A stretch of 21,685 bases of DNA from Nautiliaceae bacterium (lineage in GTDB: Bacteria > Campylobacterota > Campylobacteria > Campylobacterales > Nautiliaceae), in NCBI GenBank assembly GCA_039831155.1, contig JBDONT010000025.1:1-21685 (forward strand), in the 5' to 3' direction. Shown here one piece after another: positions 4,538 to 13,132 of the stretch. A program made the position numbers and the translations under genes. The stretch's first letter is position 1. Each line of letters begins with the position of its first letter. Under the pieces are notes generated by a model. That model did no database searches and was not told the origin of the DNA. It was given only the letters and a program-made list of their open reading frames with translations.

Positions 4538-5410
4538 ATGGGATTTGTAGTTAAAGAATTTGATGTAAATGATGTTAAATTAATAGATTTTTTGATAAAA
4601 GAACTCGGCTTTTCTATGAGAGAAGCAAAAAGAGCGATTGACAGAGGGAGAATTAGTGTAAATGATAAAAGAGTAACTCAAAAAGGTGCCAGGGTCAGTG
4701 GAAAATTAAAATGTATAGTATTTGAACCCAACGGATACGGATTAAAGCCAATTTTTGAAACTACCCATTTTGGTGTGTTTAATAAGCCAAGCGGGGTTGC
4801 GGTACATCCTAAAAAACTTGCAAATACTAAGAGTTTACTTGATGATGTAAGGAATTTATGGGGAAGTGAAGCAAACTTAGTCCATCGTCTTGATAAAGAA
4901 ACAAGCGGACTTATTATTGCAAGTAAAAATAAATTTGCAGAGAGTTATTTAAAAGTGGCGTTTCAAAATAAAGATGTTAAGAAAAAATATTTAGCATTGG
5001 TAAAAGGGCATTTAGACAAAGAATATACTATTAAAAAACCAATAGCAGTAAATAAAGATGAAAATATAAAAGTAAAAGTTATTATTTCAGATGAAGGTAA
5101 AGAGGCAACGACAATAATAAAACCTATAAAGCAAACAGGAGAGAACACATTAGTTGAGTGTATTCCTCTAACCGGGCGTCAACATCAAATAAGAATACAT
5201 CTATTTAGCATAGGATATCCAATTGTCGGAGACCCTTTATACGGGGTTGATAACGATTTTGCCAATAGATATTTAAATAAACTGGTAGATGAAAAAGAGC
5301 GTATAGCAAAAACAGGAGCAAAAAGACTAATGCTTCACGCTTATTATTTAGAATTTGAATTTATGAATAATAAATATATATTGACAAATAGAGAATTTGA
5401 AAAAAATTAA
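4538..5410 (+). CDS. RluA-family pseudouridine synthase with N-terminal S4-like domain
   Basis: NKPSGVAVHP, HRLDKETSGL catalytic Asp motif, TGRQHQIRIH, PIVGDPLYG, LMLHA. Confidence 0.93.
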   Translation: MGFVVKEFDVNDVKLIDFLIKELGFSMREAKRAIDRGRISVNDKRVTQKGARVSGKLKCIVFEPNGYGLKPIFETTHFGVFNKPSGVAVHPKKLANTKSLLDDVRNLWGSEANLVHRLDKETSGLIIASKNKFAESYLKVAFQNKDVKKKYLALVKGHLDKEYTIKKPIAVNKDENIKVKVIISDEGKEATTIIKPIKQTGENTLVECIPLTGRQHQIRIHLFSIGYPIVGDPLYGVDNDFANRYLNKLVDEKERIAKTGAKRLMLHAYYLEFEFMNNKYILTNREFEKN

Positions 5411-5444
5411 GCCAATATTAAGCTTTTTTTTATATAATTCTTAC

Positions 5445-5506
5445 TCAATTTCCCCTCCTTAAAAGTTTTAAAACCTCCTCTAAATATTAGGCCTTTTGGC
5501 CTTTTA
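5445..5506 (+). ncRNA. Candidate small RNA with two C/U-rich anti-Shine-Dalgarno motifs
   Basis: TATAAT at 5433-5438; TCCCCTCCTT (5451-5460) and ACCTCCTC (5473-5480); intrinsic terminator at 5489-5505; no ORF on this strand. Confidence 0.5.
5489..5505 (+). terminator. Intrinsic terminator
   Basis: AGGCC-TTTT-GGCCT hairpin followed by TTTATT on the plus strand. Confidence 0.6.
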
Positions 5507-5551
5507 TTAAAAATAAAATAAGTGTCAGTCACTATAATTGATAATTTTAAA

Positions 5552-5627
5552 TGGCTCCGGCGAGAGGACTCGAACCTCTGACCCGACGGTTAACAGCCGT
5601 CTGCTCTACCGACTGAGCTACGCCGGA
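5552..5627 (-). tRNA. tRNA-Asn (anticodon GTT)
   Basis: Minus strand reads TCCGGCG-TAGCTCAGTCGGTAGAGCA-GACGG CT GTT AA CCGTC-GGGTC-AGAGGTTCGAGTCCTCT-CGCCGGA-G-CCA, 76 nt with encoded CCA; TGATATAAT promoter at 5647-5639. Confidence 0.98.
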
Positions 5628-5701
5628 ATGTAAGTGTAATTATATCAAATTTTTTCTTTTTTTCAAGAAAATAAACAAAAATATATAAAAACTATTAATT
5701 T

Positions 5702-5728
5702 TGCAACTCAGTTGCATTTTGATATAAT
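5702..5728 (+). promoter_or_regulatory. Palindromic operator TGCAAC-TCA-GTTGCA (putative Zur/Fur-family box) next to extended -10 TGATATAAT
   Basis: Perfect 6-3-6 inverted repeat at 5702-5716, directly upstream of TGATATAAT (5720-5728) and the Fur-family gene. Confidence 0.7.
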
Positions 5729-5734
5729 TTCGTT

Positions 5735-6133
5735 ATGAATTGTAAAAACGTTGAAAATCTCAAAAAAACGGAACTTAAAATAGCATTGTTGCTTGAAGAA
5801 AAACATCTTTTAAGCGCAAAAGAGTTGCAGGTTATTTTAGAAGTGGATAAAGCTACCATATACAGAAACATTAAAAACATGCTTGAAAAACAGACAATAA
5901 GGGAGATTAAAAACAGCGAAGGTGTGGGTTTTTACGAACTAAACTGCAAAATCCACAACCCCATTCACTCTCATTTCGAGTGTAAAATCTGTAAAAAAAT
6001 CTTTTGTTTAAAACCCTTTAACGCCGAAGATATTTTGAGCCTTTCAAATTACAGTAAATATGAAATAGAGGAAATTGAAGTTAAATTTAAAGGAATATGC
6101 GATGAATGTAAAGAAATTAAAAGTAAAAAGTAA
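5735..6133 (+). CDS. Fur-family transcriptional regulator, probably Zur
   Basis: VDKATIYRN helix, HSHFECKIC and GICDEC CxxC pairs; first gene of a metal ABC operon. Confidence 0.85.
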   Translation: MNCKNVENLKKTELKIALLLEEKHLLSAKELQVILEVDKATIYRNIKNMLEKQTIREIKNSEGVGFYELNCKIHNPIHSHFECKICKKIFCLKPFNAEDILSLSNYSKYEIEEIEVKFKGICDECKEIKSKK

Positions 6134-6905
6134 AAAATTAAAAGTTTTATTAGTAATGTTTTTATTAACTCCGCTTTTTGCGTTGAATATAAGCGTAACG
6201 ATACTGCCGCAAAAAGGCGTTGTTAAGGCAATAGGAGGAGATAAGGTAAACGTAAATGTAATGGTCCCTCCCGGTAATTCACCGGCAACATACACCCCGA
6301 ACTTCAAGCAGCTAAAAGAACTAAAAAATTCGGACATCTATTTTACGATTGGAGTACCGTTTGATAAAAAATACCTCTCAAAAATCAAAGAAATCAATCC
6401 AAACATAAAAATCGTCTATTTCGGTAGTTTCATAAAAACCACAAACAACCCTCATATCTGGCTTAGCCCCGCACTTTTACAGCTTGAAGCAAAAGTCGTA
6501 TTGGATACATTAATTACAAACGATTCGAAAAACAAAACATACTACCTGAATAATTACAAACACTATATTAAAACGCTTGCAAACCTTGAAGTAAAAGGGC
6601 TTGAAACCATCCGCCAAAAAGCCTTTATTACGTTTCATCCGTCATTTTACTATTTCGCAAAAGATTTTCACATTAATCAAATTGCAATCCAAAAAGAAGG
6701 AAAAAGCCCAAGTTTCGCATATCTCGCAAAAATTATAAAATTAGCAAAAAAAGAAAACGTAAAAACGGTAATAATTTCGCCCGAATTTCCGACTAAATAC
6801 GCAAAAATCGTAGCGGCTAAAATAGGTGCGAAAGTTGCGGTTATTTCACCTCTAAACCCTAAACCGGAAAATACGATTAATCAACTGATAGAGGCCCTTA
6901 AATGA
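6102..6905 (+). CDS. znuA: Metal ABC transporter solute-binding protein (ZnuA/TroA, cluster A-I)
   Basis: VMVPPGNSPATYTP, NPHIWLSP, FITFHPSFYYFA, EGKSPS. Start placed at ATG 6102 (AAGGA at 6090-6094) rather than TTG 6075. Confidence 0.8.
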   Translation: MNVKKLKVKSKKLKVLLVMFLLTPLFALNISVTILPQKGVVKAIGGDKVNVNVMVPPGNSPATYTPNFKQLKELKNSDIYFTIGVPFDKKYLSKIKEINPNIKIVYFGSFIKTTNNPHIWLSPALLQLEAKVVLDTLITNDSKNKTYYLNNYKHYIKTLANLEVKGLETIRQKAFITFHPSFYYFAKDFHINQIAIQKEGKSPSFAYLAKIIKLAKKENVKTVIISPEFPTKYAKIVAAKIGAKVAVISPLNPKPENTINQLIEALK

Positions 6906-7624
6906 AAGCGCTTGAAGTTAAAAACCTATATTTTAAATACGAAAAAGAAACCGTCCTTGAAAACATAAATTTCGATTTAAACGACAAAGAGTTTATGGCG
7001 ATTATCGGTCCTAACGGGGGAGGTAAAACCACCCTTCTTAAACTGATACTGGGATTTTTAAAACCCTTTAAGGGTGAAATTAAAATATACTCAAAACCGC
7101 CTCATGAGATTAGCGAAATTATAGGATACGTTCCCCAACATACAAACTTCTCACTCGACATTCCCATTACGGTGTTTGATATAGTTTTGCAGGGAAGGCT
7201 TAAAAAAGGTAAGTTTTTTTATGATAAAAAAGACAAAGAAAAAGCCGAAGAAGTCCTTAAAACACTGAAAATCGAAGAGTTTAAAAACAGAAAAATAAAA
7301 GACCTCTCGGGCGGCCAAAGACAAAAAGTGTTGATTGCAAGAGCTCTTGTAAGCGAACCTAAAATTGTCATAATGGACGAACCGACAAGTGCAATTGACC
7401 CTACGGGACAAAAAGAAATCTTAGACCTCATCGAAAGTCTTGACATTACAAGGGTGGTGGTAAGCCACGATATAAAAATACTTTTAAGAAAGGTGGATAA
7501 AATCGCCTTCATTAACAAAAAAGCGGTAATTCACGAAGGACCGAAACTCAATATTCCAAAAGACAAACATTTCTGCGAAGTGGAGCTAATCGAATTTTTA
7601 AAGGATGAATCGTGTGGGATTTAA
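6902..7624 (+). CDS. znuC: Metal ABC transporter ATP-binding protein
   Basis: GPNGGGKT Walker A, IGYVPQ, LSGGQRQ signature, MDEPT Walker B, VSHD, C-terminal HFCEVEL. Confidence 0.88.
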   Translation: MKALEVKNLYFKYEKETVLENINFDLNDKEFMAIIGPNGGGKTTLLKLILGFLKPFKGEIKIYSKPPHEISEIIGYVPQHTNFSLDIPITVFDIVLQGRLKKGKFFYDKKDKEKAEEVLKTLKIEEFKNRKIKDLSGGQRQKVLIARALVSEPKIVIMDEPTSAIDPTGQKEILDLIESLDITRVVVSHDIKILLRKVDKIAFINKKAVIHEGPKLNIPKDKHFCEVELIEFLKDESCGI

Positions 7625-12816: not shown

Positions 12817-13062
12817 TTATAAAACAAATTTAATATTTTTATGTTCTTGAAGTCTTTTAAAAAATTCGTTTCTTTCTTCTTCACTTGTTACATAAGCTTC
12901 AAACTTTTGAGAATGGTATTTTCCGTGTGAGTTATTGTCTTCTATTTTACACTCTTGATTGGTAATACACTCTTTTACGGCTTCTCTCATTTTCTCTTTA
13001 TCTTCTCCGATAATTCTAAATCCCCACATTCTTGGATATTCTATTTGTTCCTTTTTAGACAT
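12817..13062 (-). CDS. DUF493 / HP0495 (YbeD-like) family protein
   Basis: IEYPRMWGFRIIG, SHGKYHS, C-terminal IKFVL; strong SD AAGGAGG; TGATATAAT at 13104-13096. Confidence 0.85.
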   Translation of the reverse strand: MSKKEQIEYPRMWGFRIIGEDKEKMREAVKECITNQECKIEDNNSHGKYHSQKFEAYVTSEEERNEFFKRLQEHKNIKFVL

Positions 13063-13132
13063 AATCCCCTCCTTTAAACTTAAAATTTAATTAAGATTAT
13101 ATCAAATTCTTAAGGAAAAGTTAAGAAGCGGT

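Follow-up and report, generated by a model that had tools for sequence, protein, structure and literature searches.

RsaE/RoxS of the Firmicutes and the LhrC family of Listeria are short regulatory RNAs (small RNAs, sRNAs) with their own promoter and terminator, and they use unpaired UCCC or CCCC motifs to pair with Shine-Dalgarno (SD) sequences without Hfq. CJnc190 of Campylobacter jejuni is a C/U-rich RNA directed against a G-rich leader, and the Campylobacterota in question lack, to our knowledge, both Hfq and sigma-32. In the excerpts cited here, RepG of Helicobacter pylori targets a G-repeat in the tlpB leader (PMC8295292), and sRNAs of the Campylobacterota are reported to show poor conservation, in general even from Campylobacter to Helicobacter (PMC3847290). 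Here we analyse positions 1 to 21,685 of contig JBDONT010000025.1 from a Nautiliaceae bacterium (assembly GCA_039831155.1), a stretch of 21,685 nucleotides called the window below. Between an RluA-family pseudouridine synthase gene and a tRNA-Asn gene it carries an element, at about 5446-5506 of the plus strand, that is best read from comparative evidence as a previously undescribed, family-specific, plus-strand base-pairing sRNA. The sRNA gene is very probably real; it would encode a trans-acting RNA of ~60 nt specific to the Nautiliaceae.

The whole unit lies within the 141-bp spacer between the synthase gene and the tRNA gene. Its parts and flanks are:

4538-5410, plus strand: open reading frame (ORF) of an RluA-family pseudouridine synthase (PF00849, E 2.7e-33; PF01479, S4), with its TAA stop at 5408-5410, inside the first TTAAG
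5406-5422, plus strand: direct repeat ATTAAG-CCAAT-ATTAAG (TTAAG-N6-TTAAG, with TTAAG at 5407-5411 and 5418-5422), 11-bp phased and in the -35 position, a putative HsrA/CosR (HP1043-type) activator box
5433-5438, plus strand: -10 box TATAAT, 10 nt past the second TTAAG and 7 nt ahead of a conserved CAA
5446-5469, plus strand: unstructured 5' seed CAATTTCCCCTCCTTAAAAGTTTT, 24 bases, invariant over 21 columns in a row among 23 copies of four genera, containing the first C-rich motif, TCCCCTCCTT, at 5451-5460
5473-5480, plus strand: second CCUCC motif, ACCTCCTC, less conserved
5489-5508, plus strand: intrinsic terminator AGGCC-TTTT-GGCCT (5489-5502) with a T-rich tail, from a terminator scan and the fold
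5552-5627, minus strand: tRNA-Asn, the downstream flank of the spacer

An earlier sequence-only reading of this stretch had listed both TTAAG copies, TATAAT, the two C-rich motifs and a hairpin followed by TTT, and all of them are in place. Its central proposal, that the plus strand encodes an unannotated sRNA particular to this lineage, with a promoter and terminator of its own, and that this RNA pairs to SD regions, now has strong comparative support. We infer a 5' end at ~5446-5448; transcription would start from the TATAAT promoter, with the HsrA/CosR-type box in place of a -35, and end at the intrinsic terminator. In the predicted fold of the plus strand (5445-5510) the terminator hairpin alone forms (minimum free energy -11.6 kcal/mol, z -3.0, 0/200 shuffles as stable). 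Both C-rich motifs are unpaired in the minimum-free-energy and centroid structures, and the "two anti-SD loops" of the sequence-only reading are thus not loops. With Rfam 15 at the gathering threshold, the whole window yielded tRNA only. When the interval 5380-5550 was searched at E up to 10, there were 10 chance-level matches, all with E above 1, the best reaching 20.7 bits where the gathering score is 50.

Relatives were searched for the locus with a 341-bp query centred on the spacer, and comparisons across the family used 30 Nautiliaceae genomes, including that of the window (G000; other G numbers are relatives, and g1 to g6 are the genus groups of the family). The unit is present in 18 of the 21 related loci that carry the synthase 3' end. 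The exceptions are G009 and G022, in which a tRNA directly follows the synthase gene, and G006, whose contig stops ~35 nt past the stop codon. The synthase is the constant upstream neighbour, and the neighbours downstream differ between genomes. The 17-mer TTTCCCCTCCTTAAAAG occurs exactly, inside the unit and once per genome, in 23/30 genomes representing four genera (g1 6/6 including G000, g3 8/9, g4 2/2, g5 7/10, g2 0/1, g6 0/2). A raw tally of 24 genomes included G023, but its only matches have one mismatch and are ribosome-binding sites (RBSs), so the figure is 23; that assembly is 70% complete, with the rluA locus unassembled. This conservation across four genera places the element far above chance.

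All 22 copies with upstream sequence share one layout: (A/T)TTAAG-N5-(A/T)TTAAG, ~10 nt, TAnAnT, 7 variable nt and the 21-nt invariant block. TTAAG in the first repeat copy and TTAA in the second are invariant in 22/22, the final G of the second copy is at least 90% conserved, and TAnAnT is invariant. The distance from box to -10 is fixed in 20/22 (a one-base shift in the other two) and that from -10 to RNA in 21/22, and the spacers and discriminator vary freely among the copies; G008 has four phased TTAAG copies. Fixed box and -10 elements with freely varying spacers form the pattern of a promoter plus RNA, not that of an untranslated region (UTR). The sequence-only reading had looked to conservation of the CCTCC motifs as a check on its proposal. 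The first motif passes this check, lying within the 21-nt invariant block, whereas the second proved dispensable (CCTCC in 19/23 copies, degenerate in G002 and G017, absent from G016 and G045).

A sequence-only model of promoter plus seed gave full-length matches of 62-71 bits in G000 and in 9/10 other sampled family genomes. It gave no full-length match in 140 genomes from 25 other families of the order, where the best score was 28.8 bits, mainly from the promoter part. An exact 20-mer scan of a collection of species genomes found 20 stretches, 16 of them in Nautiliaceae/Nautiliales records; the remaining four are in unrelated bacteria and have neither promoter nor terminator. On these two scans we regard the element as family-specific.

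The terminator hairpin is G+C-rich in every copy, and its sequence differs between copies. RNAalifold on a plain MAFFT alignment predicted 0 pairs; the hairpins were misaligned, and the copies were therefore re-aligned to a 5-pair model with the G000 hairpin as structure. Compensatory changes are seen at 5/5 stem pairs, and 91% of cells are paired compared with 68% in shuffles (0/500 as high) and 29-63% when the model is slid, figures to be read with the caveat that fitting to a model favours pairing. The stem is followed by a mean of 3.3 T in 6 positions, against 1.7 A in the 6 positions before it, on the plus strand. Retention of hairpin pairing in every copy while the sequence changes indicates selection on RNA rather than on DNA. 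This bears on the notion that the conserved stretch is a DNA-level element only, a site bound by HsrA or another protein that serves the neighbour genes and makes no functional RNA. The TTAAG box does match a DNA-binding consensus, and the varying downstream neighbours make an insulating role conceivable; however, the longest invariant block is found past the -10, where a transcript would begin, and we consider a DNA-only role very improbable.

The orientation of the unit was weighed as well. The sequence-only reading had offered, as its alternative, a 13-aa peptide encoded on the minus strand (SD AAGGAGGGG plus TTG, 5448-5407), to which a 41-aa GTG ORF at 5532-5407 may be added. G000 has a strong SD 5 nt ahead of the TTG, but among 22 copies the frame is intact at 13 aa in only 6 and gives 6 aa in 3, 4 aa in 1, two codons in 10 and no start in 2. 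The peptides are unrelated save for letters forced by TATAAT, and the supposed SD and 5' UTR are invariant while the supposed coding part varies. The minus strand of the spacer folds like its shuffles (z 0.12), and it is on the plus strand that the hairpin leads into the T-rich tail. We accordingly reject a minus-strand peptide as an exceedingly remote prospect. A CsrA-type sponge on the minus strand, suggested by GGA motifs, was rejected on the orientation of promoter and terminator and on the unstructured minus-strand fold.

Excerpts from two papers describe the HP1043/HsrA consensus of H. pylori as a pair of TTTAAG hexamers on the coding strand, separated by 5 bp and taking the place of the -35 (PMC5253667), later refined to ttTAAG-5bp-tTTAAg with HP1043 as an activator (PMC8345958). 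The sRNA box agrees with this consensus: it is a direct repeat on the coding strand, it overlaps the promoter, and its invariant columns are TTAAG and TTAA(G). The "phased repeat" of the sequence-only reading is therefore present with its 11-bp phasing, but it is more than phased, since it matches the HsrA/HP1043 activator box. G000 encodes nine OmpR-family genes. One of them (C37:6439-7107, 222 aa) matches PDB entries 8uvx (E 4.8e-75), 8uuz (E ~1e-75) and 2hqr (1.2e-67) end to end, and the next OmpR-family response-regulator match reaches only E 1.4e-22. We take 2hqr to be HP1043 and 8uvx and 8uuz to be CosR, the PDB table naming them just response or transcriptional regulators. By sequence, then, C37:6439-7107 is the HsrA/CosR orthologue.

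The pattern TTAAG-N6-TTAA(A/G)-N9-11-TAnAAT occurs 7 times in G000, compared with 0 for a reversed control. Promoter-only partial matches of the promoter-plus-seed model are common across the order; together with the other G000 sites, these widespread matches mark the box as a general promoter type of the group. A putative promoter of its own stands upstream of the conserved RNA in 22/22 copies, and its dependence on HsrA is an inference from the box. Apart from the sRNA, the pattern was observed at C38:198, C41:34881, C13:22286, C40:30606, C38:29284 and C32:34876. These sites precede rplM-like, PEP-synthase-like, CbiM-like and TusA-like ORFs (judged from N-termini only, without a family search) and an apparent tRNA gene. 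The six offer a preliminary outline of an HsrA/CosR-type regulon for the Nautiliaceae.

The conserved stretch could instead be the 3' UTR and terminator of the synthase mRNA, possibly a processed 3'-UTR-derived RNA, with no promoter of its own. No terminator lies between the rluA stop codon and the element, which follows the synthase gene in most loci, and a sigma-70 consensus scan called no promoter at 5433-5438, being silent there because no TTGACA-like -35 is present. The RNA data are also of interest here. Of 24 sequencing runs found, two metatranscriptome runs of one sample contain 0.86 and 0.77 of the region's words. The data consist of assembled contigs from 4 runs, without ends or strand; one contig covers 4900-5579 unbroken, from gene through spacer, one ends at 5455, and two further RNA-library contigs span tRNA-like parts only. 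The unbroken contig fits read-through from rluA or carry-over of DNA. The scan result counts against a separate promoter, and the contigs speak neither for nor against a discrete sRNA. Against a mere 3' UTR stand the invariant TAnAnT 7 nt ahead of CAA and the invariant box 10 nt ahead of TAnAnT, with varying bases between them, as well as the same box and -10 ahead of rplM and a tRNA gene in G000. We consider a 3'-UTR origin unlikely, and even if it were right on biogenesis, the complementarity between seed and leaders would still favour a base-pairing function.

That complementarity was examined with RNAduplex by pairing the 24-nt seed with positions -32 to +6 of 2349 candidate starts in G000, taken from a custom ORF caller with a bias toward SD-preceded starts; the 1% tail of the resulting energies lies at -19.1. 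All 8 other G000 sites within two mismatches of the 17-mer are the reverse complement of an RBS directly ahead of an ATG. The seed complement, AAAACUUUUAAGGAGGGGAAAUUG, differs from the generic RBS of G000, which is usually AAGGAG followed by A or T, with G at each of the next three positions in 13-23% of 426 aligned sites and an A-rich upstream flank. The G000 assembly yielded no 16S 3' end, and the tail was therefore read from five relatives, where it is GGAUCACCUCCUUUC(A/U)AG, its core being GAUCACCUCCUUUC followed by A/U. Neither of the leader flanks GGGG and CUUUUAA improves pairing with the 16S tail GAUCACCUCCUUUC, so they fit the sRNA and not the ribosome; extended 16S pairing as an account of these flanks was rejected on the tail GAUCACCUCCUUUC(A/U). 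The predicted duplexes of seed and leader are about twice as stable as those of the 16S tail with the same leaders from 37 to 75 C, and at 55 C they reach -14.8 to -18.4 compared with -5.7 to -9.6 kcal/mol. On these modelled energies the sRNA could compete with the 30S subunit at the temperatures at which thermophiles grow, and its hold would loosen by degrees with heat.

The seed scan ranked the NifX-like gene (PF02579) first among the 2349 starts, followed by an SPFH gene (2), an unknown 395-aa gene (3), YfdX genes (4 and 13), HtrA (6), DUF308 (7), GroEL (8), a CbpA-like gene (9), ClpB (10), DnaJ (11), GrpE (15), DUF493 (17), GroES (19) and DnaK (48). Other proteases (ClpA, ClpX, Lon, HslU, ClpP and FtsH) fall at ranks 180-1389. 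In the mechanism we propose, the 5' seed CAAUUUCCCCUCCUUAAAAGUUUU would pair over 13-17 nt across the SD and its flanks in several mRNAs. The best conserved candidate targets are the NifX-like gene, htrA, clpB, groEL and grpE, then cbpA, dnaJ and groES. From the location of the sites we infer repression rather than activation: pairing would occlude the RBS and translation would be repressed. Translational repression by RBS occlusion, with a regulon of the NifX-like gene and chaperone and protease genes (htrA, clpB, groEL, grpE, cbpA, dnaJ), is the account we favour, on balance and with real reservation.

The SPFH/Band-7 gene was dropped as a core target despite its rank, as it is present in only 4/30 family genomes. 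Over a 10-mer, its RBS matches the sRNA seed perfectly. The G000 copy (C21:17617-18510) and that of G015 (C10:11549-12148), a genome of a different genus, share 98% identity across the 200 N-terminal residues used as query, which suggests recent horizontal transfer of the gene.

Leaders of the orthologous genes in the 30 family genomes were compared by presence of the sRNA, with G023 placed in the sRNA-bearing group although its incomplete assembly shows no copy. Absences of the sRNA represent ~2-3 independent events, and the contrast between the median duplex energies of seed and leader listed here is therefore descriptive, not a statistical test:

NifX-like: -26.0 with sRNA (n 20), -13.0 without (n 4)
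ClpB: -24.8 with sRNA (n 22), -14.8 without (n 4)
HtrA: -22.2 with sRNA (n 22), -8.9 without (n 6)
GrpE: -22.7 with sRNA (n 22), -13.5 without (n 5)
GroEL: -22.2 with sRNA (n 23), -16.8 without (n 5)

The same trend is visible in the leader sequences. For clpB the entire short leader, AACUAAAACUUUUAAGGAGG, is kept in g1, g3, g4 and g5 and has diverged in G009, G022, G010 and G014. The htrA leader has (A/U)ACUUUUAAGGAG(U/C)GGAA abutting the ATG in g1 and most of g3, and CUUUUAAGGAG is missing in 6/6 sRNA-less genomes. The grpE leader carries AAAGGAGGGGA in most sRNA-bearing genomes and GGAGGGA or weaker in sRNA-less ones; the weaker form is also found in G016 and G045, whose sRNA is without the second motif. 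The NifX-like leader has AAAACUUUUAAGGAGG in 19/20 sRNA-bearing genomes and is altered in 4/4 sRNA-less genomes. In a rough tree from three partial proteins with a midpoint root, G009, G022 and G044 form one clade, sister to G016 plus G045; g6 is a deep branch and the position of G006 is uncertain. We find this sister-group contrast the most telling: the clpB, htrA and NifX-like sites are kept in G016/G045 and have decayed in G009/G022/G044. Most sRNA-bearing genomes thus combine an unpaired invariant seed with conserved, predicted complementary sites in the NifX-like, clpB, htrA, groEL and grpE leaders.

In the other genomes, most of the one-mismatch matches to the 17-mer that were examined (all but three of those listed) are RBSs. 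They belong to NifX-like genes (the majority), htrA, DUF308, cbpA (G007), a PAS-domain gene and unknowns; one match, in G012, has no downstream start codon. The PAS-domain protein (169 aa, PF08447) has an RBS that complements the 17-mer at 17/17 positions in G018:C87 (minus strand) and at 16/17 in G016:C56:48756-49372, and its gene is a genus-specific candidate target.

The sequence-only reading had proposed the DUF493 gene as a target within the window. The site it named is as described:

13065-13074, minus strand: DUF493 RBS AAGGAGGGGA, 2 nt ahead of the ATG of the gene at 12817-13062, a perfect complement of 5451-5460

This 10-mer stands at 8/2349 candidate start sites of G000, and strong complementarity is found in 7/21 sRNA-bearing genomes (median -12.8). 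DUF493 is therefore a possible target in G000 but not a conserved one.

Beyond the small number of independent sRNA losses, several points weigh against the regulon we favour. The duplex energies were computed without target accessibility. Eight HrcA/HspR-type heat-shock genes have a median rank of 10.5, which 0/30 flank-shuffled, CCTCC-keeping seeds reach (best 29, typical ~130), but this gene set was picked post hoc, after the ranking was known. A generic anti-SD 13-mer gives the same eight genes a median rank of 40; since any CCUCC probe ranks them fairly high, part of the heat-shock signal reflects strong SDs. A scan with 43 nt returned a similar top list together with unrelated pilin-like, ABC ATPase, Cas1 and 2OG oxygenase genes and unknowns. 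The NifX-like homologue of G007 has no site (-8.2) despite the presence of the sRNA, and the GroEL site is retained in the sRNA-less G022 (-23.2) and G044 (-24.1).

Some of these points lend themselves to another explanation, in which the RNA binds a protein or acts as a decoy (for example, titrating a factor that recognises the C/U-rich 16S tail) and the match to RBSs is a by-product of CCUCC. CCUCCUU in the seed is the same string of letters as the relatives' 16S tail CACCUCCUUUC, 21 invariant bases exceed most sRNA seeds, and the response of the heat-shock genes to any CCUCC probe would be expected. However, UUUCCCC and AAAAGUUUU, the invariant flanks, do not match the 16S tail; in four genera the leaders of the NifX-like gene, clpB and htrA carry their exact counterparts, and these leader flanks decay where the sRNA is missing. 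The RNA also has no GGA motifs for CsrA. A decoy or protein-binding role is thus decidedly unlikely, and a base-pairing sRNA remains our preferred reading. In its most extended form, the sRNA would be a trans-acting proteostasis thermostat, driven by HsrA, that holds groESL, grpE-dnaK, dnaJ, cbpA, clpB, htrA and the NifX-like gene in translational check. At growth temperature its A/U-rich 13-17-bp duplexes would win over the 16S tail, and heat shock would weaken them, adding an instant post-transcriptional layer above HrcA/HspR, and the leaders would have co-evolved with the RNA and decayed after its loss. We offer this extension as rather a long shot.

Several further features were observed at the genes and sites discussed above. 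In the clpB promoter region of most family genomes, TGACTAAA (ACTCAA in g4) lies a few bases 5' of TGnTATAAT (in G000, on C2 upstream of 76233); it may be half of an HspR-type operator. In the complete genome of G004 (C1:575813-576414), clpB matches as two overlapping pieces (open frames of 163 aa and 727 aa), the second match containing a single TGA, and the gene may be frameshifted or split. G007 has two 16S 3' regions (C1:30226 and C1:148709) that read GTAGGAGAACCTGCGG and GTATCGGAAGGTGCGG, respectively, between the 1492 primer site and GGATCACCTCCTT, and the spacer that follows differs too.

Downstream of the sRNA terminator, the ~40 nt that separate it from tRNA-Asn (window 5512-5551) contain a conserved near-palindrome, AGTGTCAGTCACT, at 5522-5534. 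The same ~40 nt, 91-93% identical, adjoin other tRNA-Asn copies in G000 (e.g., C43:15521-15646) and in relatives. Variants of the near-palindrome (GTGACTGTCAC and TTTGACAC) are found 3' of the sRNA terminator in many genera, even with no adjacent tRNA, and in G004 it occurs twice, on either side of a ~330-bp insert carrying another tRNA. It may serve the tRNA as a minus-strand terminator or be an element in its own right. Further on, at 5702-5716, lies a perfect palindrome, TGCAACTCAGTTGCA, that shares bases with a strong promoter-like site (TTGCAA-16-TATAAT, with TG). This promoter region (window 5700-5730) stands ahead of a Fur-family gene (5735-6133, PF01475); next come a 276-aa ORF and an ABC-type ATPase-like ORF (region 5735-7624). 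A near-identical palindrome was found in G009, and that at 5702-5716 looks like an autoregulated Fur/Zur-type operator.

In the partially available literature on Nautilia/Nautiliaceae sRNAs and on sRNAs acting on clpB or groESL leaders, no such RNA is described, though supplements might hold unnamed candidates. The nearest parallels in design are RsaE/RoxS and LhrC, which, as generally described, share with the Nautiliaceae sRNA the unpaired C-rich motifs, more than one per RNA, and several SD targets. It differs from them in having no sequence or Rfam relation, in belonging to another phylum and in a seed of 21-24 nt that extends well past the anti-SD core; its predicted regulon comprises chaperones, proteases and a NifX-like gene, whereas theirs lies in central metabolism. 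With RepG and CJnc190 it shares the Hfq-lacking phylum and the use of a C/U-rich RNA against G-rich leaders. Unlike RepG, whose C/U-rich part lies in a hairpin loop, the Nautiliaceae sRNA has both motifs unpaired, and it has no Rfam match. RepG and CJnc190 are, in the excerpts available, confined to a species or its close kin, whereas the seed described here is invariant over four genera. A third parallel concerns the promoter: the sites bound by HP1043 in H. pylori include the promoter of the sRNA gene cncR1, according to the excerpts cited (PMC5253667, PMC8345958). The Nautiliaceae unit resembles HP1043 promoters in its two TTTAAG-like hexamers 5 bp apart in the -35 position beside a -10, and an orthologous regulator is encoded in G000, although Rfam gives no sign of kinship between the sRNA itself and CncR1. 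The sRNA would tie the essential regulator HsrA/CosR to post-transcriptional control, and it supplies a definite regulon, open to experiment, for bacteria whose RNA biology has hardly been touched. Should the chaperone targets be borne out, a single sRNA would here act on the core heat-shock machinery, which is rarely seen, in deep-sea vent thermophiles of four genera whose 21-nt seed is invariant and whose matching leaders track the presence or loss of the sRNA.

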